A DNA stretch of 64,000 nucleotides from a virus. Each line of letters starts with the position of its first letter. Position 1 is the stretch's first letter. This document shows, one piece after another, positions 1-54,142 of this stretch. Position numbers and translations under genes: made by a program. The stretch lies in the IMG/VR virus record IMGVR_UViG_3300045988_113151. One strand, 5' to 3'. Below the pieces are notes generated by a model. That model had not been told where the DNA came from, did not search any database, and saw only the letters and a program-made list of their open reading frames with translations.

Positions 1-25
1 TTGGTTCCCGTCTTGCCTTCAGAGG
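1..25 (+). repeat. DGR variable repeat (VR), 3' end only
   Basis: ttggttcccgtcttgccttcagagg (1-25) vs ttagttcccgtcttgcaaacagaaa (208-232). All 6 mismatches sit where the 208-232 copy has A. Confidence 0.7.
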
Positions 26-74
26 TACTATCATAGAAGAAAAAGATATAGAAACTTTTAAAGCTTTAAAATAA
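1..74 (+). CDS. 3' end (partial) of the DGR target gene; C terminus carrying the variable repeat
   Basis: Frame 3-71 reads GSRLAFRGTIIEEKDIETFKALK, TAA at 72-74. Nt 1-25 are a diverged copy of 208-232. The gene body lies upstream of the window. Confidence 0.6.
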   Translation, partial: GSRLAFRGTIIEEKDIETFKALK

Positions 75-99
75 AAATTACTAAAAACATGGGTAGAGG

Positions 100-232
100 T
101 CCGTAGGAAACTATAAGTAGTTCAACGTTCTTACAACAACTCGAATGCCAATGAGAGTGTAGCTTACTTGAATACGAACAACTCAGCTTCGAATACTAAC
201 TCGAACATTAGTTCCCGTCTTGCAAACAGAAA
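100..232 (+). repeat. DGR template repeat (TR); 5' boundary approximate
   Basis: Non-coding tract rich in A and AAC (aacaactcgaat...aatacgaacaactcagcttcgaatactaactcgaacatt). It ends in the 208-232 match to VR and lies directly upstream of the RT gene. Confidence 0.6.
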
Positions 233-383
233 CGCAGTCAGAACCATATAGGCTATTATGCCTAACGGACCGAGCCTTACTAAACTTTCTGAAATACTGA
301 AAGAAGTAAAAAATCACGTGCGTGCCATCATGCGTTTGGTAGGTTAGTTCTCGAAGAAGGTAGATGGCGAAACTGAAGGAAAT

Positions 384-1424
384 ATGCGCAGAGAAGGATA
401 TATAATAGAAGAAATAATTGAATATTCTAATATGTTAGAAAGTTTCAATTACGTTATGAGAGGTACTAAGAGGAAAACTTCTGCAATTGGAATATACTTA
501 ATGGAAAACAAGGAATTAGTAATACAGTAGTTGCAGAAGGAAATAAGTGAAGCTACTTTTAAAATTAGTAGTTATAGAGAGTATAAACTTTATGAATGGG
601 GGAAAGAAAGAATAATACAAGTAATACCTTTAAGAGAAAGAATAGCTTTAAATGCAATAATGAGAGTTGTTGAAAAACATTTAGTGAAGCGATTCATAGC
701 AGATTCAGCAGCTGGTCTTAAAGGTAGAGGGCTACATTATTTATTCTATAGAATGGTCCATGATATCAAAAATAATCCATAGGAAACTAAGTATATATAC
801 AAATGTGATATTCGTAAGTTTTATATGAAAATAAATCAAGTAATCATGATGGAGGTTATCAGAAAATATTTCAAAGATAAGAAACTTATAATATTATTAG
901 ATAGATGTGTATCAATGTTACCAGAAGGATTATCTATAGGACTACGTACTTCACAAGCTCTTGGTAACTTATTATTGAACTATTATGTAGACCATAAATT
1001 AAAAGATCAATATGGTGTTAAGTACTATAGAAGATACTGTGATGACGAATTATTTCAAGCTGCAACTCCTTAGTAGTTAACACCTATAATAGATATATTA
1101 AAGTAGTGCGTATCAAAAGCTGATTTAGATATCAAACCAAATGATCAGTTATATTGCATTAATAATAGAGACATAAACTTTCTAGGGTGTAGAGTTTATG
1201 GTAATGGTAAAATAGCCATTAGAAAAAGAATCAAAAAGAAATTTGCTAAAAAGATTAAAACCATAAAAAGTAAAAAGAGAAAAAGAATATTAATATCTTC
1301 TTTCTATGGTTTAGCTAAGCACGCTCACTCTGGTAATTTGTTTAAAAGAATTACTGGAGTAAGTATAAAATGGTTCTAGAAGCACGGACCAAATGATATG
1401 TATAGATATAAGAAAGTTAAATAA
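384..1424 (+). CDS. DGR-type reverse transcriptase (346 aa with TAG read as sense)
   Basis: ATG 384, TAA 1422-1424. RT motifs RIIQVIPLRERIALNAI, SIGLRTSQALGNLLLNYY (SQ motif typical of DGR RTs), YRRYCDDELF (YxDD), INFLGCRVY. Six in-frame TAGs (528, 780, 1071, 1074, 1104, 1377). Confidence 0.85.
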
Positions 1425-1431
1425 GTAAGCC

Positions 1432-1938
1432 ATGAGAAATTATAGTAATGCAGATATTAAATATATAGAATGTATAAATAACAAATTAAATAAGTGGAGA
1501 ATACGTTGGGATATACAACCAGAATATCAACAAAACGAAGAAGGAAGCCAAGAAGAAAGAGGAGTATCATTTTTAGAATATGAGTTTAAACACAAACCAT
1601 CTTTAGATGAGATAAAAGATGTAGTATTGAAATGGTACAATGATAGAATAGATACTTAGATTTACTCTGGATTTGTATGGAAAAATATGCCAGTGTGGTT
1701 ATCTAAAGAAAATCAATTTAACTATAAAGCAGCATTTGATTTAGCAGTATAGACCAACAGTCAATCATTACCTGTTACATTTAAATTTGGTAGTGAGTAT
1801 CCAATATATTATACATTTGAAACTATTGATGAATTGACTGACTTTTATCAGAAAGCCATGGATCATGTTACTACTACCTTAACAGCTGGATGGGCTTTAA
1901 AAGATTCATTAGATTGGTCAGTATATAATACAGATTGA
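1432..1938 (+). CDS. hypothetical protein (168 aa), possibly a DUF4376-like tail-fibre accessory domain
   Basis: ATG 1432 to TGA 1936-1938 with in-frame TAGs at 1657 and 1750. SGFVWKNMPVWLSKENQFNYKAAFDLA...ELTDFYQKAMDHV resembles DUF4376 from memory only. Confidence 0.45.
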
Positions 1939-2084
1939 GTTAGCAAAAAGAGCTATTACATCTCCTGTATATACTTTTACTTATAGTAACATATACATAC
2001 AGGAGACGTTTCATAAATAAAATGTCAAAGGTATTTTCATATGCTAGCTAATATCATGTTAGCATTAATCTCAGAAAAAAATTA

Positions 2085-2633
2085 ATGATTGTGTTAAGTA
2101 GAAGTGAACAAGTAATGAATCTCGCTAGACGTATATTTGCTAACGGTTACCAATCTATATTAGGTTGGTGTACTGGGATTGCAACTATAATAGCTCCAGC
2201 CGTGCCTTTAATAGGTACTGCTTTTCTGTTCATAATATTAGACTTAATCTATGGGTATAAAGTATATAGAAAATTCACAGGGCGCAAAGATGTTGAATCT
2301 GGTAAATTATGGAATACTTTAGAAAAACTAATGTTTGCATCAGTAATGATTGCTGGGTTTACTTTATTAGATAAGTTTGTATTTATGACATATGCAGATC
2401 TGGTGCTAGCTAAAGTTGCAGCAGGCGCTATATGTTTTGCAGAAATAATATCATTATTAGAATCACGTAAGGCATTAAAGCCTAACTCAATAATAACAAA
2501 ATTACTTTCTAAGATAATAAAATCTAAAGCAGAGAAATACCTAGATGTCGATATTTCAGATATAATAGAAGACTAGAAAAATATTAATACTATTACAAAT
2601 GATACCAGTACTGATAAGCTTAGCAAAAAATAA
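2085..2633 (+). CDS. holin (phage holin family 4-like)
   Basis: Multiple TM segments. FIILDLIYGYKVYRKFTGRKDVESGKLWNTLEKL fits the LD..G...S.K..KK holin signature. In-frame TAG at 2574, true stop TAA 2631-2633. Confidence 0.55.
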
Positions 2634-3255
2634 AATTCTACAAGTTGTCAGTTGGTTTAAAAAGTATTACAAAATAATAGCAGTGATTGTCATTTCGATA
2701 CTCACTGCTATTTTGTTTTATTAGCATGACTAGCTACAAAAGAAGAATTTAGAAATAGATAGAGTAACTAATAACTACGAATTCTACATGAAACAAACCG
2801 CGGAAAGTATTCAATAGAATCAAGTATTGTAGCTTACTTTAAATGAATATAAAGAAACCAAAGATAGCTTAATATAGAAAATAAAAGCTACTTAGAAGAA
2901 ATTAAAAATCAAAGAGAAGGAGCTATCTCAAGTGCAGATATAGGAGCAAGAAATAGTACATGATACTACAGTAGTAGTCAAATCAAATGACTTTGAAGTG
3001 GAAATCAAACCAAATAGTTTAACATCAATTATTATAAGCAGAAAAGATACTCTCCTTAAACATCGTCTAGACATTAGAAATTCTCAAACAGTGTTTGTAG
3101 GTTAGAAAAAAATATACAAAAGATAGTATAAGAATTGGTTCTAGAGACTCCTTCACTTTGATTTTAAAAAGAAAACTATTTATAAGTACCAAATAGATAA
3201 CAGTAATAAATTAATCAAAATAGAAAATACTAGAATAGTTGAATTATCAAAATGA
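2599..3255 (+). CDS. membrane-anchored coiled-coil protein, spanin-like lysis candidate (218 aa)
   Basis: ATG 2599 overlaps the holin 3' end. N-terminal TM (IIAVIVISILTAILFY), then a K/E/Q-rich helical region. 10 in-frame TAGs, TGA 3253-3255. Confidence 0.4.
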
Positions 3256-3419
3256 ACTTTATTAGTAATATAATTAAAATATTCAATATGATGAGAGAAA
3301 GACTGAAAAATGAGATAACTGATATTAAGAATACTATAGCTGAAGCTAAGAAGATGTTTATGGGAGGATTTCCTAAACCACCAGCTATGAATTTTCCAGT
3401 TCCTCAAAATAAACCATAA
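3252..3419 (+). CDS. small protein (55 aa), lysis-cassette partner candidate
   Basis: ATGA overlap with the preceding gene, TAA 3417-3419, followed by a terminator. No TAG inside. Confidence 0.35.
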   Translation: MNFISNIIKIFNMMRERLKNEITDIKNTIAEAKKMFMGGFPKPPAMNFPVPQNKP

Positions 3420-3424
3420 TACTA

Positions 3425-3454
3425 AGGTAGACAATTTAGTCTACCTTTTTTATT
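3425..3454 (+). terminator. rho-independent terminator
   Basis: AGGTAGAC-aattta-GTCTACCT followed by TTTTTATT. Confidence 0.7.
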
Positions 3455-3578
3455 ATGCTTAATTTTAAGAACAGCTATTAGTTATAGCATAGGAATGTAC
3501 CTACCTTATATTAAAATCACACAGTGAGCCTTAAAATGCGTTTAATCACTATTATAATTATAATTAATACATATTAAT

Positions 3579-4244
3579 ATGACATTAAACGAGCTTGTTC
3601 AAGATGTATTACTTGAAGCTAGAAATAATCAGATAACTGAAAGTGAAAAGCTAAGTAGACATCAAATTGAAATATGGATAAAATCCTATCGAGCAATGCT
3701 TATAAAATAGGATATAGATAAAGGTAGAACAGTAAATCCTTTATATACTTAGACTATTAAAATGCATCTCGATAAAGTAGAAGAAGAAACTGGTCATCTA
3801 GAATATATAGGAGACAAAGAATTACCTACACTAATAGATTTTAATTTTAGACCTGGAGTAGTATCTGTAAAAGATATGTTTGGTAATCTAATATAGCTAG
3901 GGTCTGAAACTAAGATGAAACTACAGAGATACAGAAAGTATACATGCAAAGATTACATAGCATATGTTAAAGGCAATAGAATATATGTAGAGGGTGATGC
4001 TAATCAGTTAGAATATATAGAAGTAGAAATAATAGCAGAAGATCCTACTGATTTAAAACTATGTTACAACCCAGAAACAGACGAGTATCCTTTACCAGCA
4101 GCTATGTGGGGTACAATAAAAGATATGATCTTTGCAAAAGACTTTAGAACTATGAGTATGCAACCTTCTGATACTACTAATGACAGTAAAGATGACTTAT
4201 AGAATGTTTATAATCCTAATGTAAATAGAAGAGTAAGAAGATGA
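3579..4244 (+). CDS. virion structural protein, function unknown (221 aa)
   Basis: ATG 3579 to TGA 4242-4244 in one frame with 4 in-frame TAGs. Sits in the virion module with ATGA coupling to the next gene. Confidence 0.55.
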
Positions 4245-4708
4245 ATGAACTAAATAAATCAGCGAATAAAACAGCTTCTTATACTATTCCTTCATTCTAT
4301 AATAACTATTTAAGTAGTATAGAACCAGATACAGTGTATGATATACCATACTCTATTTATAGATAGATAGTAACAGACTACTTTTAGTATATTAGAGATG
4401 AACTATTAGAAAATAGTAAAGAAGTAAAGTTACCATATAGACTTGGGTCAATATAGATAGTAAAACACAAACCTAAACATTATGACGGTAGAAGTCTTAG
4501 AATTGACTACAAGTCTACAAAAGAATTAGGAAAGCTAGTGTATTTGACTAATGAACACTCAGATTGGTATAAATACAGAATTTATTGGAATAAATAGGAT
4601 ATGATAGTAGCTAATAAAAGTAAGTATTAGCTTACTTTAACTAGAGCTAATAAAAGACATCTAGCTTAGCTTATAAAAAATAAAATACACGATTACGAAG
4701 AAATTTAA
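4241..4708 (+). CDS. HU/IHF-like DNA-binding protein candidate (155 aa)
   Basis: KEVKLPYRLGSIQIVKHKPK resembles the HU/IHF beta-arm entry. crAss-like virion modules are known to carry IHF-like genes. 6 in-frame TAGs, TAA 4706-4708. Confidence 0.4.
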
Positions 4709-4726
4709 CTAGCCAATTATAGAATT

Positions 4727-5653
4727 ATGATATACAAAATGGTATCCTCAAAAGCTGTTATAGCTAAAGTAATAGCTGACTTAGGAATGGATGAGGATGA
4801 TATAAAAATAACAGATATTTAGGAATGGATTGGAGAAGCTGTATCAAAGATAGGTTCTGTAAATTAGCTAGATCATAAAGTGGTTAATATACCACTAAAA
4901 GGTTATCAAGCTAAGTTACCTTGTGACTTAGAAAAATTGAATACAGTAGCATTTTCATTCTGTGATTGCGGTGGTTGGCTTCCAATGAGAAAAACAACTA
5001 GCGCATTTAGTGTTTATAGTAGGTCTTGTGAATAGTCTTGTTGCGATATGTTAGTGCAAGATGAAGCTTTAATACCAATGGTAAAAAATATGTTTAATCT
5101 TACTAATGATAGACAAGCTTTAGACAAACTAAATGAAGATGACAATCTAAGATCTACACTTAGTGCTTTACTAAATCAATATACAGTGTGTAGCAGTAAT
5201 GGTAAAATAATAGGAGTAGCTAATAATACTAATTTTAGTAATTCTCTACAGTATGATATCAAACCTGGTTATATCTTTTGCAATATACCAGAAGGTTGGT
5301 TAAAGTTATCATACTATGCTACATATACAGATGAAGAAGGAATGCCAATGATACCTGATAATCCTTCTTACTTTGAAGCCATTTATTGGTATGTTGCTAT
5401 GAAGTTACTGTATATTGAATATTTTAAAGGAAATAAACCGTAGCATATATATTATGATGCCAAAAGTTCATGGAACTTCTATAGAAAACAAGCTTATGCT
5501 GAATCTCTGATGCCTAATGCAGATGAAATAGAAAGCATAAAGAATACTTGGACTACTCTAGTGCCAGAAGTAATGGAGCATGATACATTTTTTAGTGCTA
5601 CTGGTGATAGACAACATATATATAATTAGAACTTTAGTAACTTATGGAAATAA
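4727..5653 (+). CDS. virion/tail structural protein (308 aa)
   Basis: ATG 4727 to TAA 5651-5653, frame checked codon by codon, 5 in-frame TAGs. Confidence 0.55.
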
Positions 5654-8600
5654 ATAGTCAAGTAAATACTTTTGAGGCGGGTATGAATCTGGATTCAGAC
5701 ATCAGTATGTTGAGAAATAATCAATATAGATGGGCTGAAAATATTCGCTTACTCACTGACAATGCTGGTACTACTGGAGTTCTATAGAATATAGAAGATG
5801 TAAGACAGTATGAAAATGGATTGAGTGCTTCAGAAATAATACTAGGTACAGCAGTCACTAGGTGGTACAATAAAGCTAAAGGTATAGTAGAAGAATGCGG
5901 TATAGTTATTACTAAAGAATTATACGAAGGAGATTATATTAACAATATCTATGCTGTTACCGATTTTGATAGTATTAAACCAACCTGGAATTTAGTAGTA
6001 TCAGCAGAAATGGATTTAATTAAAAAGGTAGCTATTGTTAGTAATTACGAAACTGAGAGTGTAAGTAAGATATACATATCTGACGGAGTGTCAGCTATTA
6101 AGTGTGTCAATATATCTAAAGAATATAACACTACTAAATCTAATCATATTATTGATAACACCTACTTCGATTTATTACCTAGTTCTACTATAGCTCCATT
6201 TATACTAGAATCTATGACTACTGGTAGTTTACCAGCTGGTATGGTATAGTATTGTTACCAATTATTTACTACGCATGGTAGTGAGACTACTACATCGTCA
6301 TTGAGTGCAATGATACCTATAATATCTGATAATAGTAACAGATCTAAGACTGTAAATGGAGATCCTAAAGATACTATGACAGATAAGGGTTGTTTACTAA
6401 AAGCTACTATGTTTAATGATGGTAGATTTGAAAGAGTAAGAATAATAAGCATTCAATATTTAACTAATAATCAAGTTCCTAGAATATATATAGTAAATGA
6501 ATGTGACTTACCAGAATCAGAATCTGGTACTGTAACATTTACTTATAATGATAATGGTACTGGTTATATTAGTGAATTAAGTATAGAGGAATTTAATGAT
6601 CTAGTACCATTTGAGTTTAATGCTAAGAGCATAGCTAAAATGAACAACAGACTATTTGCTTCTAACATACAGGAATTAACTTGGGATGTAGACTATGATG
6701 CTAGAGCTTATAGATGTAATAGTAAAGGAATTGTTAAGTTAAACTCTAGTATATCTGATAATATTGAGCTCCCGCTTAAACAGATATTAGATCCACTAAA
6801 TGATGTAATTATTCCTAAATAGCACGACTGTATAAATCCTATGAATAGTCAGACTGTCTATCCCAATGATGTAGATAGCGAGTATGCTTACGGTTTTGAT
6901 GTACAAGTTAGTGCTACAGATGAATTAGAAGAAGAACCAGTAACAGCTAAGATAAGAGGTGGAAAAGGATTTAACATATCTTATAGATTTATTATTGCAG
7001 ACCTAATAGAATCAGATGGTTCTACAGTATCAGATGGAGAAAGCAATAAACCATTTATTGGATATAACCTCGAATTGAGTTCTATGCGTAGAACTACAAA
7101 TAGTATACAATTAAGATGCCCAGAAACTAATTCTATAGTAGCTGTTTCTAATATTAGCACTCCTGGATCTAGAATAAGAAATTATTGTGATCCATTTTAT
7201 GTTGCTAATTTCTTAGGCTATCAAAGAGATGAAGTATACAGATTTGGTATAGTGTTCTACAATAATAAAAATATTCCTTCTCCAGTACATTGGATAGGAG
7301 ATATTAGATTTCCGTCAGCTGATATTCCAGGATATGAGCCTTTTACTTTTGGTGGAACTGTAGATGGAAGTGGTAACTATGAATTAGTATCACATCCTCT
7401 TGGTATTCAGTTTCAAGTAAGCAATATACCTACAGACGTAACAGCATACGAAATTGTAAGATGCGACCGTACTATATCCGATAGAACAGTAGTAGCTCAG
7501 GGTTTATTAAATAGAACAATTAGATATAACGGATGGGCAAATTCTGATGATTATGTTTATAGTAGGCACACATTAGGTCCTATGGATAGAAGACCAGCTA
7601 TTATGCCTACATTCTCAGCATCTAAAGATACAGCATTTGCTCAAGGGTATTACGTTGTTCAAGATAATAGAATGGAACAACAAAAGAAACAATTACAAAA
7701 TCCATTTGACACTAATGGGGTATTTGATTTAGTAAGCCCTGAAATATGTTTCAACAAAGAAAAATCTGAATAGATAATAACATCTGATACTAAAATCGTC
7801 CCTTTATATTGCGGTATGTGTGCTACCTATTGTAATGATACTGGCAACGAACACCATAGATGCGGTATACCTTTTACTGGAGTAGTGAATATTACCAGTA
7901 CAGAATATCAAAAGAACCCATTTGGTGGTATAGCTTCAGAAGCGAGCCATGTTGACGATAAACCAGCATTAGAAAATGGTATACTAGACGGATTTGAATA
8001 GAACGGTGATGAAGAGAGTGGAGGTATATGTAAATACTATTAGTTCTTTACTAAAGAATACGCTAACTACTAGAATTCTAATAATAGAATAGCATTTGAT
8101 ATTAACAGTGCTATAAAAACTACTAATATATCACCTTACACAGACTTAGAAGGAGCTAAAGGTTATATAGATTACATAGATAAATACTCTTATGTTAACT
8201 GGTCAATAGGATCATATGAAGCTTGGGGTCCTCATGGCGTTAATATGGTAGTTACTTCTAATAACTTATATGATACATATAATGGGATATCAAGAACTCC
8301 ATACGGATCTAAATATTCTTACAATGCTGTACTATTTGTTAATATAAAGAAAAGAGCTGCACAATATGGTGGTGATACTTATGCTAATAGACAGAATTCT
8401 ATTTATATAAGTACTAATACTTATATAAAACCAACATGGGATGACTATAGTAGCTCTACTTGTTTTGGAGGTGATACTTACTTAGGAGTATTTGATTATT
8501 CACATACTTTACTATTTACTAAGAATGTATCTACTGATATGAATGGTTATAAGAGATATGTGGGATGTTATATACCGTTAGAATCTAGTGTTAACCTGTA

Positions 8601-9864
8601 TTATAGAAATGATACTCACTTCAGTCAAGAAACTCTACCATCTAGAACAGGAGCAACAGTCGGTTCTGCTAATATATATTATACTACAGAACCTGGAACT
8701 CTAAATACTATATCTGCGCAGAGTGTACCCATGTATGCATACAATGCAGCATATTCTAGTTCTAGTACTAGTAAAAGCTATATACAAAAGTCTATGTATG
8801 CAGAAGATGATGTTAAAAGTTCTAATAGAATAACATGTTCTGAATTAAAGACTAACAATGAACAAACTGATAGTTGGACTAAATTTAAATTTGCCAATTA
8901 CCTAGATGTAGATAGTTCTTATGGACCGATAACTAATCTTAAAGTATTTAAAAACAGGTTATATTACTTCTAGGATAGTGCTGTAGGAATAGCATCAGTA
9001 AACGATAGATCTCTGATAACTGACAACAATGCTGGAGCATTAGTATTAGGTACAGGTGGTATACTTACCAGGTTCGACTACTTAGTAACACTAAATGGAG
9101 ATAGTATAGTAAACGATAAGAGTATTACTAATTCTGAGACTACTATATACTGGTACGATCTTGATAAGAATGTGTTATGTTCATTAGGTAATGGATTTAA
9201 TGAATTATCTAAAGTTAAATTTGTTTAGACGTATCTTAATCGTTTACCAGACAAAGCTAGAACTAATCCTGTATCATTCTATGATAAAAAGTACAACGAA
9301 GTTTGGTTCAGAGTATACGATAGATCTCTTATATTTAATGAATAGTTAGGAGTATTTACTTCATTCTATACCCATAATCCAAACTGGTTCTTCCCATTCT
9401 CTACTAGATTAGTAACTATAAAAAATAATAACTGCTACTATTTACACAACATGTATGATGTAAATAGTGAAGTAAAAGAAGAAAGAGTTTCTTATATTAG
9501 GTTTGTAGTTAATAAAGATATGGCTCAGACTAAAGTATTTGATAACCAATGGATGTATGCAGATCTTACAGACCCAACTAATTAGGATCAAACTAAGATA
9601 TTAAAGAATATATATTTCACTACTAAAACTCAGGAGACAGAACCAATTAATTGGGAAAATATAGACCACAGAGAGGACAATTATAGATTTCCTATTGGCA
9701 GAGAGAAACAGAATGACCCATATCAATAGGAATAGACTAATATGTCTTATGCTGGTAGAATGAGAGGAAAATATTTAATATGTAATTATACATTTGATTG
9801 TAATAACAACAAAGAGTTTAAGCTTCCTTATGTGAAGACAACTTATAGATATTCTATGCTATAA
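5644..9864 (+). CDS. large tail protein (1406 aa); crAss-type stabilization/muzzle-like protein
   Basis: ATG 5644 to TAA 9862-9864 verified codon by codon. It joins six track ORFs in one frame through 13 TAGs. The N terminus NTFEAGMNLDSDISMLRNNQYRWAENIR is typical of podovirus large tail proteins. Confidence 0.7.
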
Positions 9865-9865
9865 T

Positions 9866-11740
9866 ATGAAGAAGAAAATAAATATACCTAAATATGCATA
9901 TGGAGTAGATTAGATTACCGATGCAATAGGTGCAGGATTAAATATGATAGGTAATGCCACATAGGGAAATTAGGTTACAGCTAGTGGTGTATTAAGTGGA
10001 GTAGCAGGTGGAGCTATGGCAGGTGCTCAATTTGGTGTACCTGGTGCTATTATAGGAGGAGGATTAGGTTTAATAACATCTTCTATGGGAACTGGTGGAG
10101 ATGTAAATGAACAAACAGGTGAAGTTACTAATCCATCTGGTATAGCTGGTTTATTTGGTCATAGTAAGAGATACTTACAGAATAGAGGAGCTAAGATAAG
10201 AAACGGTATACAATCTAGATCCAATGCAGAACAAATAGCTTCTGATTACTATATGAATAATGGTTATAATAACTTATCACTATCTAAAGGTGGTGTTGTT
10301 CCATCTACTATGGCTTACTTAGATGATGGAGAATTAATTAGAACTCCAGATGGTACAATAGGCTCAATACCAGAGGAAGGTAAACCAACTGATTCTAATT
10401 TACTTAATGTACCAGTAGGAACTCAGGTACTAAGTGACAAGTTAAAAGTTCCAGGAACTAAAAAGACATTTGCTGAAATGGGAAAGAAATTAATGAGAAA
10501 AGCAAAAGAAGGTGGTGATATTTATGCTCAGAATAGTAAGAGATTAAATGAGCTTAATAATCAACTGGCTTATCAAGAACTATTAGAATTACAGGAGTCA
10601 GTAAAAAACAAAGCTTCTAATAAAGCTAACAAGTATAGTAAAGGTACAGATAGTAATGGTATTTCTCCTAGAATTAAACCTTACAAATATAATACTAATA
10701 TGAGTAAATTTCCATATTGGGACAGTACTACAAACAATTATAAACCTGAATATCTTAACTGGGTTAATAATATTACAGATCAGGATATAAAGGATATTTA
10801 TAGTGGTAAATACGGTGATATGTCTACTTATTTAGGTAAAAACAAAGGAGTAATACCTACTGCGCAAGAAGCTAAAGCTTTGATGACGGATAAAAAGTAT
10901 GGAGACTGGCATAAAATTGGACAAACATTTGCTACAGCTAAAAGTAGAGAGTCCCAAAGTATTCCTAATAAAACTAGATTTGGTAGAAATACTCAAGACT
11001 TTAGTAGAACACCTATTACAGTGAATGCTCCAATAGGTAATGTAGATTCTTCTAACGAAAGAGGATCTTATTTTAATTACACTGGTAATCCTGGTAAAAT
11101 AAATGTCAATAGAAAATTAACCCCGTCTAGTGCTGGAGTATAGGATTCAATAGATCCTGCTAATTTAGGAGGATTAATGAGTAACTTAGCTGCTTTAGCT
11201 GGTCCTATAGGTAATATATCAGTAGGTAGACCAGAACAAGTAGATACTTATACATATGACCCAGTTTATGGTCCTACCGAATATAACATAGATCCTTTAC
11301 TTAATTAGATTGCTTCTAGTGATGCTATAGCAAGATACAACATGGCTAATGTAAATCCAAATACAGGAGCTAACATGGCGTTTGGTATACAATCAGCAGT
11401 AAATAGAAACAATGCAATAGCTAACGCATACTCTCAAAAGAATAATGCTGAAAATCAAATGGCATTTAATAATGCATAGATAGCAAATCAATGGGGACAA
11501 CAGTATGCTAATGCAAGACATATAGCAGCTAATGAATAGGCTTAGAATGATGCTACAGCTAGAAATATACGTAGACAAGGTTATGGTGATTTATCTACAA
11601 GATTGCAAGCTATCAGTAGAGACAAGCGTTTAATGAACAGAGATTAGGCAATGTTAGAAGCAATGCTACCGTATTTAGAATATGGTATGACATCTAAACA
11701 ATTAAAAGAATTACACAGTAGATTAAGTTATGGCAGTTAA
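9866..11740 (+). CDS. virion protein with Gly-rich hydrophobic N terminus (624 aa), ejection/cargo candidate
   Basis: ATG 9866 to TAA 11738-11740 verified. 9 in-frame TAGs. GAGLNMIGN...GVAGGAMAGAQFGVPGAIIGGGLGLI. Confidence 0.6.
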
Positions 11741-13604: not shown

Positions 13605-13615
13605 AAATATAAAGT

Positions 13616-19600: not shown

Positions 19601-22600
19601 AATGGTAATTTAGTAAGAACATTGTTTAAACAAATACGAAAAGGGGAATTTAAACAATATAAGCCATCTGAATCTTTAATGAAAGAATTCAATGATAAAT
19701 TTGGGGGATTCTTAAATTATTATGTTCCTGGAGTATCAGAAGATCAGTTAAAAAAAATAGCTTCTATAGGCGATGCTTCTACTTTCTACGCTGTAGTAGA
19801 TTCTCTTAATGCTACAGTTATGGATACATTTAACATCAGTAAAATAGAAGATTTACAAGACTTGCCTCAAAAGATTGATGATATATTTGAGGATATTCTT
19901 GCTACTAATCTAGAAATGGGTATGTATCCAGAAGAAACTGAACAATTAATAAGGGACGTAATCAGTAATAAGGAAGTATTTAAAAAGCAGATTGACGATT
20001 ATTTAAGAAACTTCAGTATTATAAAAAAGAATAATCCAGAAGCTTAGCAAGATGAGCAAAACGATATAGATACAGGTAAACCAGATAACACTTGGGATAA
20101 GGAAAGTTACACAATAAGTAAGAAAGCTAATGTAGCATTTAAAGCTAAATTACTATTGTACTCCATACCGAAAACAAGATACGAATTTGATCCAGAAACT
20201 GGAGAAAAGGTATTAGTAGAGGTAGAAGATGACTTACTTATGACTACAAGATCTGAAGATTTTAATGTGGTATGGAATAAGGTACTTGAAAATCTTTGGA
20301 ATGTAGAAAGTTACTTAGATATAGTAGATGAATGCTACAATCTTGGTAAGACTGACCCATTCTTTATGACTTTATATAATAAGTTAACATCCAAAGATGA
20401 CCCAATAGATGAGGTTACTAAAACATAGTTACTTAATACAGTTAAAAGTGCTAAAAATAGTTTAGTAGCTATTGTAGTAGAAAAAAGAGTGTTGAGTAAG
20501 ACAGAAACTATGGGTTCTGATGAGCAAATTCAATATGTTACTGAGCAAATAGCTAAAGAACTTAATTGGAGAATATAGGATTCAGATGTATATCGAAAGA
20601 CTAGTCGTTTACCAAAACAATGGTCTAACGCATTCTTTATGTCCGATTTGATAGACGTTAACTCAGATGGTACTAGAACTATTAACAGTGGTAAATTTTT
20701 AAGTGCTATATGGAGTAAAAAAACCAAGTTGGATTCCCTATTAAATAAGGCTGAATTGTCTAAAGAACAGTATACACAAGCTAGAGAACTGTTTATAGAT
20801 ATATGTAACAATTTATCTATAAATATGGACGACCTATCATTAGATTATTTGTTGAGCAATAATGGTAAAGAACCTGATTATAAGTCATTAAAACAATTCT
20901 GGCATGGTACTACTCCTAGTACATCTTTTGTTAAGAGTATACTTAATAATATTAATACAGCATCACAAAATGGAAGTAGTTCTATAGCTACTCGTGGTGG
21001 TAGTACTGCTAGATCATTTGACCGTATATTTACTACTAGAAACCCTAAAGCTCAAATAAATCAAATGGCTATAGCTTGGGGTAGAACTCACCCATCACCA
21101 GAAGAATTTAGTGTTACTGGAGCAGGTGGTAACTTAGTCTATCCTATTACAGAGAATAACTACATGTCTGATCAAATAAGATGGCTAAAGAAAGATATTA
21201 ATGGTAAAAGAGACCTTCTTAGTAAGAACCCATATTCTGCTAACTCTTTATTACTAGCTACTTTAAATAGCAAACCTAGCACTATAAAACTTAGTACTTA
21301 TCTGAACTTAGAAGAAAATCTATAGAATACTAATAGAGATTACTTTGGTATATCTCCTATAGAAGATTATATATCAAAACTTACATTTGGTTTCAACAAT
21401 CATCTGTTTTGTCCCACGATGTCAGATAAAAAGACTTGGCACACTATTAGTGGAATATAGATGGTTAAGGACTTCTTACCTTCTACAGTATTTTCAGAGT
21501 ATGAATATGACAAAGATACTTAGGAACTTATCGGAGCTAAATACACCAGAACAGAAAGAAGATTTTCCGATAGAACTATTGGTATTTTCAAAGGATATCT
21601 TAGAGATGAATATAATGCAATATAGAAATATTTTGCTACCAAAAAACAGGTAATAGACAATCCTAATTTACAAGTAGGTAATTACTACGGAACTAAAAAA
21701 GGTAACTATGCTGACGGAAATGGAGGTAGATTTAGATATTTCAATGTATTAACTATAGATGGAGTTAAATATAATCTAAATGAGCAACTAGCTAAAGCTG
21801 AGTATGCTAATGATGAAGTAGCTATTAAAAATTTATTAGATGTTATTAAGCAAGCGTTAGATAAAGATACTAGTATAAATGATGCCATTAATACTATGCT
21901 TGTAGAATATGCTAATGATGAAGTATAGAAAGCTATAGAGTTAGGAGTAATATCTAAGAAATTAGAAAATAAGTATATTCCAGATAATATACTTCATACT
22001 CCACAATCTGTAAAAGATAGTAAATCTAAGAAAAATAAAAAAGCTAAGGAAGAGGATGAGTTTATTGTAGATGAAAGTTTTGAAACTAAGTTCTCTGATA
22101 TAGATAGCCAAGATAAAGAAAGCGATTTAGTATATTCAGTAATAGCTTCACATGCTATAAATAGTGCTATATCAACTATCGAGATAGAGAAATGTTTTAC
22201 TGGAGACCCAGCTTTATATAAATGGCAAAAAGAACTGGTAATATATAAACCAAATGATGCATCATTTGAGCCTGTAATATCTAATGAAAGATCTCTTAAA
22301 GAATGGGTATCTAAGCGTTAGGATAATAACGAATTGGACGGAAATCCCTCTGAATACTCTGCTTACTATATGATTACAGGTAGAGATGTTGATAAAATCA
22401 AGCGTCTATCTTCAGTATTATCTACTGGTACTAATCTTAGAACGAAGTTCGGTAATACTAAAGATGAAGAAAATAGAACTAACTCAAAATTTCAAGTATT
22501 ACAATTAAAAGATAATGAAATAGGTTCTACTGTATATGATACTTTGTATTAGATGTTTAGAACATCTCTTATAAAAGATATGTATCAAAAAGAGTTTAAT

Positions 22601-25600
22601 CTTACAGATTAGCAAGCATTGAACGGAGTTAAACCAGAATCTATTAATGCTACTTTGGGTAGACTTAAAAAGAAAAATCCCAAAGCAATAGAATTTATCG
22701 AAAAACAAGCTAAAGCTAGTGCAAAACCATATTCAGATGGAGAGATAAACCAAGCGGATGCTGCTGTATATATTAGACCAGAGTTCTATAAGAAAATGAT
22801 GATTGCTCTTGGTGAGTGGAGTGATGAAATAGCTGAAGCATATAGGATTATGGAAGAGTCTGATGATTGGTTATCAGATGTAGATTTATACAACAAAGCT
22901 GTAAAAGCAATTACCCAACCTCTTAAGATGGTATACTTTGGTGATCATTTTGATGAAACGTTAGGTATGAACGTTAATACATTTGATAAAATGGCTCTTT
23001 TCCCATTGTTTAAGTCGTTTGCTAAAGCCGATAACAAGTATCTATATGACCGTATGAATGATGAAAGCAAGGGAGTAATAGATATGGTAGCTTTCGAATC
23101 AGCTATTAAAGTAGGTGGTAGACAGAAACTGTCATACTATAAAGATGGTAAAGTTAATTTAAGTGAACTTGATAAACCCAGTGATATAGATGGTAGAAAC
23201 GGAAATGGTTTGGCTACTTATACTCAAGATCTTAATCAAATCAGATTGCAGTTAAATACTGACCCTCATGAACATTTAGAAAGAGCTTTTGGTACTCAAG
23301 CTATTAAGATTGGTTTTGCAAACGTTGTAGATACACGTGATTATGGAGCAAATAAAGGGTTGGCAGTAAAAGGGGCAGATATTAAGCGTAATATTATGGA
23401 CGCTATTAATTCTCTATCAAAGATAGGATAGGATGAAATAAGAAGAGAGTTCTTTACTAAAGGTCACGTCGATAATAGAAAAATAGTCAATTATTTATAG
23501 AGGCAAGCTACTAATTCTGGTATGTCTGCTGAAATAGTTGCTAACTTAACTGTAGATGATAATGGAGATATCTTAATTCCAATTGAGGCTCAAAGTATTA
23601 GAGACTGGATTCAAACTAAGATAACATCCTTTGTAAACAAAGCAGTAGTAGATGTTAATACTCCTGGTGGTTCTGCTATTCAGATGTCTTCTTTCGCATA
23701 TGAAGCAGTTGGTAGAAATGTGAAAACAGATGAAGGTTTGGCTACAGCTTTTAATGAAGGCAAGAAACTTAAATTCTTAGCTAAAGAAGGTCATATGTAG
23801 GTAATACTTAGTGAAAACTTCTTTAGAGATATATTGCCCAAAGAGCTCAAAGATGCTAGTTATAGTACTAAACGAAAATGGTTAATTGATAATAACATTA
23901 TAGGGGACTCTTCTAAACCGTATGGTATAGGTTATCGTATTCCTACCCAAGGTCTATCCTCAATGTTTGCATTCTAGGTAGCAGATATTATGCCATAGAC
24001 TATTGGAGATACTATAATTGTACCAGAAGAGTTTACAGCAATGACTGGTTCTGATTTTGACGTAGACAAGTTATATTTAGCCACATATGCTTATAAAGAT
24101 GGAGTTAGAGTAGATTCAGAAGAAGATAGTAAAGAAGGAAATATAAATAAACTATTGGATAATTATTCACTAGTGTTAACTGACTTTACTAATATTGCTG
24201 AGACTCGTGCTTCTATTGACACACTTACTAAAATTCTACAAAAGGAAGTATTACCTATTGTTAAGCCTAGCAATAAAACAGAAGTAAAACCAATGTATGA
24301 ACTTGCTCCTTCATTCCAATTATCAAGAAAGACTGAATATACTGGAGGTAAAGCTGGTATTGCTCCATTTGCTTTGAATTCAACTAATCACGCTCTTACA
24401 CAATTTACCCATTTGTGCATTAATTATTCTAATTCAAATAGATATAATTTAGGAGCTTTAGATGAGGTAACAGGGGAAGATAATCAACGCATTATGGACT
24501 GGTTGTCCGCTATGATCAATGCTCATGTAGACGTTGCCAAAGACCCGTACATTATGACACTTAATGTTAATGCTATTACTTATAATATGACTTCTCTATT
24601 ATTACGAGGAGGTAAAGGTGAGAGCACATTCTACTTCTTAGCGCAGCCTGCTTTACGTAGATTTACTAAAGAGATGTTAGAAAGTAAAGGTATTATTGGT
24701 GCAGAAACAGGAGTAACTGAAAAAGACAAACTTAAGCAGATAGCGAAAGATTGTATGGAATATTTAAGAGACACCCTTATAAATATGCCAAGTAGTAGTG
24801 AGGATAAAGCTACATACACTCAATATTACAATGGATTAGCTGGCGAATACGGGTTATCTCAAATACCTGGATATGATAGTGTAGAAGTTGATTATAGTTA
24901 GGTATTTAACAAAGAAGCTGCTTCTAAGTCATTAAAAGACCCTTATTCTGCGCACGGTTTATACCAACAAGTAATATCAATAAGAGCTTATCAGGATTTA
25001 TCTCAGGATACAGAGGTGCTATCTAACTTAGTTCAATTATCTTAGATTGATACTAAGAAGTTCGGAAATACATTGCCTTTACAATTGAACTTTAAGAGAA
25101 GACTTGATAGATATATTGATAATTATTAGGCTAGATTTTATATTAAAAACAGAGATGATATAGAAAAGCCTATAAATTATTATTTATCTTCTACCTTCTT
25201 AAAAAGAAAATTAGACTCTGCTATTAATACTCCTAGAATATTATTAAGTAATCAAGTAATTGAAGCTACTAAAGGATATAAGAAAATATTTAATGCAGCA
25301 TGTGATTTCTTTATAGGTAATTCTTCAGATGGTCAGTTAGTAACTGATTTGTCTAAAATTATTACTACTATGTTGAGAACTAAAGCTGTAGTTAATAACT
25401 TACCTGATTTCAAAATCAGTGATTCTGAGTTCTTAAGTATGTTAAAAGGTCCTAATAGTATGGCTAAATAGTTAACTAAAATTAAAAATGAGTTGCGAAA
25501 ACGTAATGATTTGCCAGCTATTTCGTTCAATGGAGTCATAAAGAATGAGATACTAAACTACTTACAAGAATATGCTTCAGATGGTTCTTTACAAGAATAT

Positions 25601-26842
25601 GATAGAATAGTAACATCAGACAATGCTCTTACTAATACCTCTACTTATGAAAACAGATTATTATCTTCTTACTAGGATTTGTTAGAATGTGAAGATAGTA
25701 GTATAAGAGAGTTCGCTGATAAATTAGGCTTATATGCTTACCTTACTAGTTTTGATAATAGAGGAGTAGATTCGTTCTTTGATGTTATAACTACAGCTTG
25801 GAAGAAATCAAAAGGATATCCAGATGCTATTAAAGCTGCAATAAATATTATGAATGATGATACCTTACAAGGTATGCACTTCTTTGGATTTGACGCTGAA
25901 AGAATACAAAATGGTAATTATTCTTAGATATTTACAGAGATTGCTAGAAATGCTAGTAGAAATGAGAAGTTAGTACCAACTTATGAACTTAATCAATACG
26001 ATAGAAAATTGAATTTAGTACAGTTTAGAGATGGAAGTAGACCGTTACCTGCTACATTTGTTAGTTCTACTAACAAACCTTTTGTTAAAGTGTTAATTAG
26101 AGTTACTAATCCAAATGACTTTATAATATATCAAAAAGTTGCAAGCACATATCAAGTAGATGCTAATGGAGATGAAATCAAGAATACTAGAAAATCTGTG
26201 TATAAAGCTATACCAGCTTTAGGAGTAAAAGATGATAAAAAAGTATACTATGAGTATAATAAAATAGCAGATGAACAATCAGCATTTCCATAGAATGCAT
26301 TTCCTAAAGAAGCTATTATCAGTAGTGCTAAATTGGAAAGTAAGGTAAGAGAAGCGTTTAAAGCGCAAGTTGATAAAAATAAGAGTATACTCATGTATGA
26401 ATCTACAGATGCCATATATGTAAAAACGGCTGAAAGAGTAGAGCAAGTTAACGGATTTGAAGAACCAGAAAAGAGTACATATGGATCTGATATGGAATCT
26501 GCAAATGAAGTTTATAATACAGATGAGTCTCAATCTACTAACACTACAGTTGGCGAAGAGGAATCAATACCTACAACAATTATAGGAGAGACAGAATCTC
26601 CTACGTTATAGGATATGTATTATGATACACAAGACCCTACTCAAACTATAATTAGTGACGATGTGTTGTAGTTCTCAGATGAGACTTTTGGAGAGAACCC
26701 ATATTTTGATACTATCCTTGAGTCTGGTATTGCAGAGTATGAAAATGTACAGGATGTAATAAATAGCTTTGAGAGTACAGAAAATACTTTAACAGATAGT
26801 AATTTTAGTGACGAAGCGTATAAAACTTGTAAAGGTGAATAA
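13616..26842 (+). CDS. giant virion protein (4408 aa): HExxH metalloprotease-like motif plus crAss-type DxDxD RNA polymerase module
   Basis: ATG 13616 to TAA 26840-26842. Every gap between track ORFs was read codon by codon: 53 in-frame TAGs, no TAA/TGA. HEAFH at 19358-19372. YRIPTQGLSS...TAMTGSDFDVDKLY with DFDVD at 24053-24067. Confidence 0.75.
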
Positions 26843-26844
26843 TT

Positions 26845-29800
26845 ATGATAATGTGTCCAAACTTTAGTGACTAGAATGTCCTAAGAGAATTTAATGAATT
26901 AAAAAATGTGGTAGGTGAAATAGGAGCCTACCACATTTGGAATGAAAACAATGGTAATCCTATTGATTAGACAAAGGACGGTAAACCGTCTAAACTATTT
27001 GCAGACTTGCTACAGTATTATAATGGTGATAGACAAGCTGCTATAAAAGGCAGAGCTAAAACCTTTACAAATACGTTTAAAACATGGTTTGATTAGTCTA
27101 AAGCATTAGATGAAAATGGAGAGCCTATTGTTACAGAATTTAATGGGGATATGGTATTTGTATCTGATCCAGAGTATGATTCTACTAAGGAGTTAACAGA
27201 ATTAGACCCTATTAAGATTAAATCTGTAAATAATACAGGATCTTTTTCTACTTCTGATAGCAGATTGCAAGGATCATAGTTAGATGAATCATTACAATTT
27301 TACTTATCTAAATCATTAGATAATAGATATAAACAAGATGTTCAAGAGTTTATTGAAGCATACAATGTATATTTTAACAAATACGATTATGCCACTTAGG
27401 AAGAGCTATAGAAAAGATTAGAAGGCATTATTCAAAACATACACGATGGTCTGAAAAACAGATTAAAAACTATCAACAAAAAAGATACGAATGTTACTGA
27501 TGAATTTAAAGCGGCATTGGTACTACAGATATCTGAATTGGAAAATAAAACAATAGATCGTGTAACTAGTATATTTCATTTTATAAATAATACTAAACAA
27601 GATGCTATCTCAACTGTCAAGAAGATTAGAGATATAGCTAATGGAAAATCTGATAAACTACCATTAAAGTAGCTATTAGATTTAAAACAAGATTTCTTTA
27701 GTTTTTATTGTCCTATGATTGATGATTGTGTAAGTACTCTTACTTCAGTAGAAGAATATAGGAACTTAATCGGAGCTACTACTTACGATAAAATGTTATC
27801 AGATGCAAAAAACATTTAGACTTTGTTGAATACTGGAGCTAATAATGTAGACAATTGGATTGTAGAACAATCAGCAGATGAATTAAGAAAAGTAGGTATA
27901 TCAGTAAATAGTCCTACTATAGAGAGCTATTTACAAGATAATAAAGACAAAGTAAGTAAGGACATTCTTACAATAACAGCATGGATTGGAGCTGGGGACA
28001 AAATAAGTGATGAAGCAATCAGAGCTTTATTTCATATAACACAACAAGCTGAATATGAAATAGATAGAGCTACATACTCAGTTAGTAATAAGTTGTTAGA
28101 TTTACTTAATAAAGTAGGAACATATAATCAGAGAAAACTTGTAGAATTAGACGAAAACGGAAAACCTACTGGTTATATGGTAAGACGTAGAAATTATGGT
28201 AAGTTTAACAATGAATACAAACAATTCTTAAAAGAGTTACGTGGTAGATTAGGTATTGTTGATGTAGAAGATTTTAGAACTATAGATCCAGCTATACGAT
28301 CTGAATATAATAAAAGTAAGAACGAATGGTTATCTTTACATTGTGAAAGGAAATATAAACCTGAATATTATGAGTTATTTAATAATCTTTCTCCATTAGC
28401 AGCAGATGCTAGAGAATTAGTCCAAATAAAAATACACAAGTTGCTAGATACAGTAAAAGATAAAAATGGTTATTACGATACCAGTAAATTATCTCCTTCT
28501 AATCAAAAGAAATTAAGTAGTCTATATCTAGAAAAAAAGCAACTTGCTAGTATATATGACATACACGGTGTACTAAAAACTGGAGAAGAATATGATATAG
28601 CTTTAGAATTAAGTAATTTGAACGAGAAACTATCTAAAGGTATGATGCTTAAATCTAACAAAGAATTGTTTGATAGAGTAAAGGCAGAAAAAAAAGCCTC
28701 ACTTAGTGAAGCTGAGTATCAAAGATGGTTGAAATATAACTCTAGAGATGAATACACTTAGGAATTCTATGACGATTTGGCTAAGGTAGAGAAGTCAGAG
28801 ATAACTAATCCTAAAGATGCTGAGTTATATGAAGAATTATAGAATAGAAAGCGTGCTATACTTAGACAGTTTAGAGATGATAAGACACATGAAATGGAGA
28901 GCTTAATACCGAATGCTGCACAGAATGAATTAGATAAGATAGATATAGACCTATCTAAAATAAGACGCAGAAATGGCAGGAAAAAAACACAAGGTTTAAA
29001 GTTTAATGATATTGCCAAGGTAGTACCTACTTAGCTATTCTACCAATTACGTTCAGAAGCTATTGAAAATGGTACTTTAGGAGTATTTGAACAACAGCAT
29101 TGTAATAGAGACGCTAATGGAGTAATTTATCCTAAATCCTACTTAACAAAAATCGTACCAGTAAAAGAGAAATACATTCTAAAGGAATAGCCTTCTATGT
29201 ATTTTTCAGAAGTAGATCCTCAGTCTCCGTTTATAAATGAAAATTATAAACCTTACGAAGAAGATGAAGGAGAGTATTACTTACCAAAAGATAATATGTA
29301 TGATAACACTAAAGCTTTTGAAGAGATATAGAATGACGCTAATCTATTAGCTCTATATAAAGAATGTGTTAATGTAATGCAAGAGTCTAATAGTAAACTT
29401 ACTAATCTTACTAATCTTAATAAATATAGATTACCATAGATATCTGGTTCTATGTGGAGATATGTAAAAGCTAGAGGATACGAAGGGTTTAAAGAATACT
29501 GGAAGGACAAAGTATCTGTTAAGAATGATGACACAGGTATGAATGAAGATATAGTAGAAGTATCTGAAGATAAGCTACACTTTGTACCTTAGAACTTCGT
29601 TAAAAGCCTAGAAGATCCAGCTACTATTACAGCTAATACAGTAGGCTCTATTATTTAGTATTTTAAAATGGCTGAAAACTTTAGAGTTAAAAGCGAACTT
29701 AAACCTAAAACAGAAGCTATATTACAATTTATAGGAAATAGAGATGTAAAAAGCAAGATAAGAGGTAAAAGTAAGAAAGGTAAAGAATCAAACCTATACA

Positions 29801-31251
29801 AGTTTGCTAAGAGCTTTGTAGAAATGAATATATATGATATTAAAACTAAATCTGCTACAGTAGATATAAAAGAAAGAGATGTTGATATATTCGGTTTTAA
29901 GATGCATATATAGCCTAGAAAAGTTAACTTTACTAAAGTAATGTTAGGTTTAAAAGCTATTGGTACTACTGTTAATTTAGGTTTAAATTTAATATGCGCT
30001 TTTACTGGTTTTATAACAGCTACTATGGCTCATCTAGTTAATTCCTTTACTGGTAGGTATTATGATTTTTATGATATGTGCTCTGCTGTTAAGTCACTTA
30101 ATGTAGACACATTTAAGAATATTACTAATATATTCAGCCCATATACTAAAAGTAAATAGATGAAGTTAATGGAATATTTTCAAGTAGGCAGTGAGTTAAG
30201 TACTAGTAATCTTAATTAGATAGCTATACAATCACAATTAGCTAGGAATTGGGCTTTTGGTATTTACTCCGTATCTGATTACTTTGTTAAGGGTGCTATT
30301 CTAAACTCTGTAATGTATAACTTTAAGTATGTTAATGGAGAATTCTTAAATAAAGAAGAGTTTAAGAATAAATATAAAGACGATGAAGTTATGCTTAGAC
30401 AATGGAGAAGTTTTAGGTCTGCTTATGATTTAGTAGAGTATAAAGATTATACTATAAAGGCTAAAGATTAGAAACATCAGAAAGCATGGGAAGCTAAACG
30501 AGATGTCATAGGTAGTACTGCTAGAAACTTAGCACAATCGGCAGATGGTTAGCTTACCCCTCTTCAGAAAACTATGCTAAGTAGTAATATAATAGGTAGT
30601 TTACTTATGATGCACCGTCAATTTATGCCTATAATACTTCAAGAAAGATGGGTATAGAATAGACAATGGGATTATGAATCTTAGAGATATAAAGAAGCAT
30701 TATTTAGGGTTCCTTTTAGTATAATAAATGCTATGAGAAAGGATAATCGTAATATCAAGTTATATCAAAAATATATACAAAATAGTACACCAGATCAGAG
30801 GAAAGCTATATTACAATTAGGTATAGAAATGACTACGTTAGCTGGTTTACATTGGGTGTTATTACCTATGATTAAATCATGGGCAGATGACGATAAAGAT
30901 TCTATAATAAGGCAACTAATAGCATTTGCTTTAATTAGAACAGACTTTGAAACTCTTATGAATGTTACTCCTTGGGCTGTATCAGACGCTATCAATACTA
31001 TCAAGACTCCTTTTCCGATTTATAATTATTATGATAACTTTACTTCATTAATATCTATAATTCCTGAAACTACTTATAATATAATTAGTAGTGAAAAAAG
31101 TGATAAAATAGATAGAGGAGCTTATGAAGATTGGACCAAAGCTCAAAAATATGGGTTAAAGTTAACTCCATTTAAAAACTTATGGGAGTTATAGGATATA
31201 CCTTCAAAACGAAGATATTATGAAACTCAAATTGCTAATAGAGATAATTAA
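26845..31251 (+). CDS. large virion protein (1468 aa) with C-terminal TM segments
   Basis: ATG 26845 to TAA 31249-31251 verified codon by codon. 24 in-frame TAGs. Hydrophobic segments near 29941-30050 and 30830-30880. Confidence 0.65.
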
Positions 31252-35529: not shown

Positions 35530-35904
35530 TTATGATTTTAGTATATTAATTAAATTATCAACATCTTTATTATTGCGAACTATATAAAATTTAGTATTTG
35601 GTTCATTTAGACTTAAATAATATTTAAATAGTTTTTCCCTATTTGCCCAAGCGTCATTAGGGTATCCTTTACATTCAATAACAAAGTCTTTTCCTACAAA
35701 GTCAGGTAAATAAGTAATAGCTCTAATCTTAGAGCTATTATAAATAAAAGCTGGTAGCAAAGTATATCTATGTAATTCATAGTCTACTTTAATATCAGCT
35801 TCTTTTAATTTCTAGTACATATAAGCTTCTAGTTTAGATCGAAATATTATTCCATCTATTTCTTGTTTAGTAGCATTACGTACTTTCTTATTTTGTTTTA
35901 ACAT
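35530..35904 (-). CDS. DUF1064-like PD-(D/E)XK endonuclease (Holliday-junction resolvase-like) with one in-frame TAG
   Basis: ATG 35904. Reads MLKQNKKVRNATKQEIDGIIFRSKLEAYMY[TAG 35812-35814]KLKEADIKVDYELHRYTLLPAF...ITYLPDFVGKDFVIECKGY. The track ORF (35530-35760) is only the part after the TAG. Confidence 0.55.
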
Positions 35905-43746: not shown

Positions 43747-43763
43747 AAAATATAGTTTTATAG

Positions 43764-43837
43764 TGATTCTATTGCGATTCGAACGCAAAACCTACACTTT
43801 AGAAGAGTGTTGCTCTATCCAATTGAGCTATAGAATC
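43764..43837 (-). tRNA. tRNA-Arg(TCT): tRNA-Arg (anticodon TCT)
   Basis: GATTCTA-TA-GCTC-AATTGGATA-GAGC-A-ACACT-CTTCTAA-AGTGT-AGGTT-TTGCG-TTCGAAT-CGCAA-TAGAATC-A. A full cloverleaf folded by hand. Confidence 0.85.
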
Positions 43838-54141: not shown

Positions 54142-54142
54142 C

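Follow-up and report, generated by a model that had tools for sequence, protein, structure and literature searches.

The 64,000-nucleotide stretch of viral DNA analysed here, IMG/VR record IMGVR_UViG_3300045988_113151 (the window, by which this whole stretch is meant), begins with some 31 kb of plus-strand genes in which TAG recurs in frame, and it raises the question of whether TAG is a stop codon there at all, which amino acid it would otherwise specify and what would decode it. The answer that we favour, with a probability of roughly 0.93, is that the window comes from a crAss-like phage whose late module is written in genetic code 15 (UAG = Gln) and is switched by a phage-encoded tRNA with the anticodon CUA, tRNA(CUA), located upstream of the large terminase gene, TerL.

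The window evidently belongs to a gut crAss-like phage (Crassvirales, Suoliviridae) close to Afonbuvirus, and represents about two-thirds of a genome of about 99 kb. Its giant late gene shows about 76% nucleotide identity, over part of the gene, to crAssphage cr6_1 (NC_055894.1; Afonbuvirus faecalis, classified as Crassvirales, Suoliviridae, Bearivirinae, Afonbuvirus), and the entire window is colinear with that genome. The late side of both has, in this order, a tail gene, a reverse transcriptase (RT), a stretch annotated as lysis genes, virion proteins and a tail tubular protein, followed by three large proteins, a 4400-aa protein and a 1561-aa protein; a convergent replication block comes next (nuclease, Mre11-like phosphoesterase, resolvase, primase, annealing protein, helicase and DNA polymerase). 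The late proteins of the two phages share about 63-79% amino acid (aa) identity. In tblastn searches, the RNA polymerase region matched only Crassvirales and environmental relatives, including 'putative RNA polymerase' of crAss001; the top matches were all Suoliviridae, and the crAss001 genes were weaker. Membership in Suoliviridae is indicated by the synteny, by the protein similarity and by a giant virion protein with the DxDxD motif (DFDVD at aa 3480). Among the contigs of about 99 kb found by exact-protein look-up is L030 (ENA ERZ1314770 NODE_99_length_99203), which is colinear with the window and differs from it by one base in the 3 kb compared. Exact matching of the window sequence itself gave a 51-kb fragment in IMG/VR as its sole match, and none in the metagenome collection.

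With TAA and TGA as the only stops, 12 long, closely spaced open reading frames (ORFs) fill the plus strand between 117 and 31251. Counted from the chosen ATG starts, they contain 145 in-frame TAGs, and neither TAA nor TGA, in 10,170 codons; the frequency of TAA plus TGA in the other two frames is 0.09 per codon, and the probability that such open frames arise by chance is about 1e-415. A small ORF (3252-3419), the thirteenth of the block, is free of TAG. These results fit an earlier note on this DNA, made from the letters alone, which had claimed that 12 of 13 plus-strand genes are intact only if TAG is translated; its total of about 140 in-frame TAGs was close, and its counts for single genes (53 in 13616-26842, 24 in 26845-31251 and 13 in 5644-9864) were exact. 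As it also stated, no late gene ends at TAG: nine of the 12 ORFs terminate with TAA and three with TGA. Plus-strand ORFs of at least 150 aa sum to 3,854 aa under the standard code and to 10,652 aa with TAG as a sense codon, and none of the other single-stop reassignments has a comparable effect; gene calling under code 11 breaks the block into short ORFs that are intact once TAG is sense. Only one stop codon is found in frame, and reading it through restores ORFs of up to 4408 aa. The TAGs lie within domains, namely six in the RT and, in the giant gene, those at 23975 and 23996, which are in frame upstream of the DFDVD motif. If counted as a Gln codon, TAG makes up 30% of the late-block Gln codons, 10 of the 20 in gene 2599-3255, and all six in gene 4241-4708, which has no CAA or CAG. 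The coding sequences of the cr6_1 RefSeq record are annotated straight through TAG, with 10-57 TAGs each (57 in the 4400-aa protein and 29 in the next), and almost no TAG occurs in its replication genes. We take TAG to be a sense codon in the late/virion module.

The minus-strand block, which the earlier note held to be readable in the standard code, is nearly all so. In its stop-to-stop ORFs, most of the in-frame TAGs are upstream of the real start codons, and its genes are intact under code 11, with one exception, the resolvase. The cr6_1 homologue of this gene (gp45) has TAG at the same position, and aa identity is 78% on both sides of it. A second gene with a sense TAG outside the late block is the small plus-strand gene at 62959-63333, which is called with 124 aa in L030 and has a standard-code ORF of 50 aa; its TAG-containing stretch is invariant in seven aligned sequences. 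The recoding had been called block-specific, and TAG is indeed sense in the late block; however, it is also sense in these two genes outside, so that 'temporal' is the better word. As to termination, seven of the 36 standard-code minus-strand ORFs with 80 aa or more terminate at TAG, and for three of the seven the stop position is supported by homologues (Table 1). The genome is thus dual-coded, TAG being sense in the late module and occupying the homologous stop position in three or more early genes. It is very improbable that the whole genome or the host constitutively uses code 15, in which case TAG would nowhere be a stop and would be scarce in the minus block only through a composition effect. 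The two outside genes, and a cr6_1 RefSeq annotation that reads through TAG genome-wide, would agree with this, but at least three early genes have TAG where the cr6_1 homologue stops, one of them in exact alignment with TAA and another as a tandem TAG-TAG; the seven TAG-terminated ORFs point the same way, and a code-15 host would make a phage-borne suppressor unnecessary.

The amino acid was approached, as the earlier note had proposed, by alignment with homologues. Eight well-conserved late proteins were aligned with those of cr6_1, and positions with TAG in one genome and a sense codon in the other were collected. At these 203 positions the residue opposite TAG was chiefly Gln (86, or 42%, most of them CAA), then Glu (29) and Lys (18), against a Gln background of 3.0%, and similarity crossed the TAG positions. 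With a substitution table derived from the same alignments, the log-likelihood was -436.7 for Gln and -622.8 for Glu, the next best, a difference of 186 units; the substitution profile of TAG resembles that of CAA/CAG. Thirty TAG positions are common to the window and cr6_1. A second alignment covered residues 2901-3900 of the RNA polymerase in eight genomes, with four further Suoliviridae subfamilies. There TAG falls on invariant-Gln columns, for example at the Q of RIPTQGL, and the TAG of the window in LS-TAG-IDTKK has Q as its counterpart in five genomes. Two genomes that are TAG-free in this region, cr118_1 and cr50_1, have Q at 19 of 92 TAG-column cells. These comparisons support glutamine as the residue that would be inserted at TAG. 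A sense codon for pyrrolysine, Glu, Lys, Ser, Leu or Trp instead is very improbable: the CUA tRNA is labelled 'Pyl' by ARAGORN, and Glu and Lys are the next commonest residues opposite TAG, but 'Pyl' is the default name that this program gives to a CUA anticodon, the cr6_1 annotation contains no pyl genes, the likelihoods and the invariant columns favour Gln, and Gln was found by proteomics in other crAss-like phages (PMC9523058).

ARAGORN and Rfam agree with the earlier note that no tRNA(CUA) is present in the window; their only candidates there are tRNA-Arg(TCT) and, beside a gene resembling transfer-messenger RNA (tmRNA), a tRNA-like element whose anticodon arm is aberrant. Beyond the window, where the note had advised looking, a tRNA(CUA) is present in the near-identical L030 and, at the syntenic site, in relatives. 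In L030 it occupies 15314-15386, corresponding to about 68.64 kb in window coordinates, 4.6 kb past the right end, and it stands immediately 5' of TerL, which contains an intein and is followed by the next large gene. The cr6_1 tRNA with anticodon CUA, annotated as tRNA-Gln, is directly upstream of a homing endonuclease and TerL; in IMG/VR relatives of the gene at 62559-62963, tRNA(CUA) lies 5-6.4 kb downstream of that gene; and a syntenic tRNA(CUA), either intact or split by an insert, exists in cr6_1 and most relatives examined. In L030, nearly every plus-strand gene upstream of the tRNA (Thy1, dUTPase and others) is an intact ORF in the standard code, and TerL, downstream of the tRNA, falls into six pieces under code 11. 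This plus-strand unit begins near 61.5 kb, at the turn of the GC skew, and continues into positions 1-31251 of the window on a circular or permuted genome. From the GC-skew turn and the gene patterns, the order of the unit is TAG-poor genes, suppressor tRNA and TAG-rich late genes, and the tRNA appears to be missing from the window because of where the window ends, not because the phage lacks it. Since TAG occupies early stop positions and the tRNA stands at the boundary between TAG-poor and TAG-rich genes, a temporal-switch model is supported. Readthrough by a host suppressor, or by context-dependent leaky termination that needs no phage tRNA, is highly unlikely. It would suit the absence of tRNA(CUA) from the window and published surveys in which only about 40% of the TAG-recoded phages have a detected suppressor tRNA (bioRxiv 10.1101/2021.08.26.457843); however, L030 and most relatives have the tRNA, intact or split, at the syntenic site, and 53 leaky stops in one 4408-aa protein would leave essentially no full-length product. 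The view that pseudogenes, or assembly or sequencing errors, account for the plus-strand genes, with TAG as genuine nonsense in a dead phage, can be dismissed, as the earlier note had done, because the block does shatter under code 11 but contains a single stop type in frame, similarity to cr6_1 is unbroken across every TAG, with 30 TAG positions conserved, and the same pattern recurs in many independent assemblies.

We therefore return to a late module in code 15 that is switched by tRNA(CUA). This module would comprise packaging, head, tail, the diversity-generating retroelement (DGR), the lysis-syntenic stretch and the giant virion RNA polymerase. The early/replication genes on the opposite strand would be translatable by the unmodified host ribosome, with UAG kept at homologous stop positions, and the phage amber suppressor at the head of the late transcription unit would act as the switch. 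Glutaminyl-tRNA synthetase (GlnRS) recognises U35 and readily charges amber suppressors; charging of tRNA(CUA) would therefore presumably be done by the host GlnRS. As the tRNA accumulates, the 145 late UAGs in the window would be read through, and before that the late and lysis proteins would be blocked. We likewise infer the timing of expression and the competition with release factor 1 (RF1).

Several points weigh against this reading. The tRNA(CUA) is outside the window, and its presence in this exact genome is inferred from the near-identical contig. Neither a release factor nor an aminoacyl-tRNA synthetase was seen: the earlier note had suggested looking for RF2 and GlnRS, but no Pfam domain of this kind was present in the ten largest TAG-free minus-strand ORFs and none is annotated in the complete cr6_1 record, the scan not being exhaustive for small ORFs and the off-window third of the genome. 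The separation of the two codes is imperfect, as two genes outside the late block carry a sense TAG. Finally, two tRNA(CUA) alleles of the closest relatives appear to begin with U1-G72.

Three clearly different tRNA(CUA) sequences occur at this one site (L030 15314-15386, L006 16403-16475 and L002 25904-25977), between conserved flanks, AGACATTAAAYATTCCC ... CTAAT. The first allele is found in L005, L007, L009, L010, L030, L031 and L034, the second in L003 and L006, and the third in cr6_1, so that the suppressor seems to be swapped like a cassette among very closely related phages. Five independent contigs, L004 (the same contig as L028), L008, L029, L032 and L033, have the second allele with a 1001-nt insert that interrupts it behind U35 of the anticodon and has the same junctions in each. 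The split tRNA spans 14887-15959 in L004, and in these relatives it lies about 3.4-5 kb past the right end of the window. The last nucleotide of the insert is G, and a TAG-free ORF in it codes for an HNH endonuclease of 304 aa (phrog_10822, E 5e-45). Deletion of the insert in silico restores a 73-nt tRNA. The whole insert and its 3' part gave no Rfam match to a group I intron. The split allele was missed by ARAGORN, including its intron mode, and by tRNA scans, and a full-text literature search turned up no description of a suppressor tRNA with an insert that carries an endonuclease gene. If the insert is a self-splicing intron, the code switch of those phages would depend on RNA splicing; if this is true, intron-split suppressors would explain part of the roughly 60% of TAG-recoded phages without a detected suppressor tRNA. 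The split suppressor of the sibling genomes is the only element here that possibly adds something new.

Other mobile elements were seen in the same contigs. On the minus strand of L007 there is a bona fide group I intron (1409-1668; Rfam 96 bits), and a LAGLIDADG intein is present in the TerL of L029-L031, L033 and L034; the TerL call of L032 has 685 aa and no intein match.

The tmRNA-like gene of the window is permuted (Rfam tmRNA_permuted; ARAGORN tmRNA*), with the tag peptide VRNDKSFVTDYTRIAA*, which ARAGORN finds unchanged in seven contigs among the closest relatives. The gene may bear on the rescue of ribosomes while stop codons are being suppressed. It is possible, though the odds are against it, that the suppressor-tRNA locus is a mobile, polymorphic switch rather than a fixed gene, with the tmRNA-like gene rescuing ribosomes that pass stops.

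Table 1. Genes, repeats and RNA elements of the window (in-frame TAGs counted with TAG as sense; empty cells, nothing reported)
Position	Strand	Feature	In-frame TAG	Stop	Evidence or remark
384-1424	+	DGR reverse transcriptase	6	TAA	phrog_1423, E 5e-72; TR/VR signature upstream
1432-1938	+	Late gene of unknown function	2	TGA	phrog_19239
2085-2633	+	Small late gene	1	TAA	No PHROG match; syntenic with cr6_1 lysis-gene region
2599-3255	+	Late gene	10	TGA	No PHROG match; syntenic with cr6_1 lysis-gene region
3579-4244	+	Virion structural protein	4	TGA	phrog_9863; 72% aa identity to cr6_1 gp29
4241-4708	+	Late gene	6		phrog_12177
4727-5653	+	cr6_1 tail tubular protein homologue	5		Homology
5644-9864	+	Virion structural protein, 1406 aa	13
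9866-11740	+	Late protein, 624 aa	9
11730-13604	+	Late protein, 624 aa	11
13616-26842	+	Giant virion RNA-polymerase-type protein, 4408 aa; DFDVD at nt 24053	53		tblastn to crAss 'putative RNA polymerase' genes
26845-31251	+	Late protein, 1468 aa; final gene of plus-strand block	24
35530-35907	-	cr6_1 Holliday junction resolvase homologue	1 (35812-35814)		gp45
44977-45483	-	Early gene		TAG	...PLSLAA-TAG, cr6_1 ...PMCLAA-TAA; exact alignment
52813-53268	-	Early gene		TAG-TAG (tandem)	cr6_1 tandem stop at about the same place
57078-57503	-	Early gene		TAG	Similarity to cr6_1 homologue ends at TAG in both
62959-63333	+	Small gene of unknown function, 124 aa	1		Upstream of suppressor tRNA site
1-25		End of DGR variable repeat (VR)			At 3' end of target tail gene, stop 72-74
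118-232 (approx.)		DGR template repeat (TR)
247-368		RT-3 RNA			Rfam; between TR and RT
43763-43837	-	tRNA-Arg(TCT)			Only canonical tRNA of the window; directly upstream of DNA polymerase gene (41737-43854, stop-to-stop)
51794-52357	-	Extracytoplasmic function (ECF)-type sigma-70 factor			Pfam Sigma70_r2 and r4; among early genes
54068-54141	-	tRNA-like element			36 bits; aberrant anticodon arm; adjoins tmRNA-like gene
54092-54472	-	Permuted tmRNA-like gene			48.5 bits (cut-off 47)
55627-55780	-	RAGATH-9			129 bits; same early region as hatchet ribozymes
56887-57025	-	Hatchet ribozyme			Rfam 85.7 bits (cut-off 51)
58928-59040	-	Hatchet ribozyme			Rfam 89 bits (cut-off 51)
59414-59650	-	RAGATH-14			169 bits; same early region as hatchet ribozymes

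A DGR occupies positions 1-1424 of the window (Table 1), with its target, the 3' end of a tail gene, at the window edge and most of the VR beyond the left edge. In the overlap between TR and VR (208-232 against 1-25), all six mismatches are at TR adenines. The corresponding pair in cr6_1 (L001 450-537, VR; 664-751, TR) has 21 of 21 mismatches at TR adenines, and its VR has an in-frame TAG (L001 473-475) opposite the TR codon AAA. DGR mutagenesis generated this amber codon, which is tolerable only because TAG is recoded. In the early region, the two hatchet ribozymes lie between small early genes, and both are conserved in IMG/VR relatives.

In short, the window is a new instance of a documented phenomenon, of which the late-gene restriction and the inserted residue have already been published for this phage group. 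Its use is more practical than conceptual: a gene caller set to code 11 would break about 31 kb into fragments, and the correct annotation is dual coding, with TAG as Gln in the late module and as a stop in early genes.

The closest known system is cr6_1, which is like the window in gene order, in late TAG recoding, in 30 TAG positions, in having a tRNA(CUA) and in a DGR beside the tail gene. However, its tRNA(CUA) sequence is unlike that of the contig near-identical to the window. It has an extra GIY-YIG endonuclease (L001 5984-6697) between the tail tubular gene and the 1392-aa gene, which the window (5641-5653, plus strand) is without, and its helicase gene is split by an endonuclease gene (L001 41674-42429), whereas the window helicase (40181-41146, minus strand) is continuous. 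ARAGORN reports no tmRNA in cr6_1, in contrast to the tmRNA-like gene of the window. Recoding was known to the earlier note from crAss-like and Lak phages, in agreement with the literature (PMC7886860, PMC9523058 and PMC6784885). There are 243 recoded crAss-like phages, mostly recoded in late genes and with the delta group included (Yutin et al. 2021, PMC7886860); in the delta, beta and zeta crAss-like phages, TAG is likewise Gln mostly in late genes, with phage-encoded suppressor tRNAs. Dual-coded crAss-like phages with blocks in different codes were described with the Mgcod tool (bioRxiv 10.1101/2022.06.29.495998). The window does not differ in kind from either set, and adds an instance and gene-level evidence for early TAG stop positions. 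Peptides show TAG = Q in other crAss-like phages, whose genomes have 94 kb and 191 kb (Peters et al. 2022, PMC9523058), and a model of late/lysis regulation with the suppressor tRNA as the proposed switch has been put forward (Borges et al., bioRxiv 10.1101/2021.08.26.457843). In the phages of both studies, as here, structural and lysis genes are recoded and replication genes keep the standard code; the extreme TAG use in genes 4241-4708 and 2599-3255 recalls the preferential recoding of lysis/tail-tube genes in Borges et al. The Lak megaphages (Devoto et al. 2019, PMC6784885) likewise have late-region TAG recoding, a tRNA(CUA) and introns in phage tRNA genes. However, Lak phages are of about 540 kb, unrelated, and encode RF2, which was not seen here in the ten largest TAG-free minus-strand ORFs or in the cr6_1 annotation. 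Endonuclease ORFs in the Lak tRNA introns, or an intron in the suppressor, are not described in the passages of that paper that were consulted, whereas the siblings of the phage analysed here carry a 1-kb insert with an HNH ORF in the suppressor itself.

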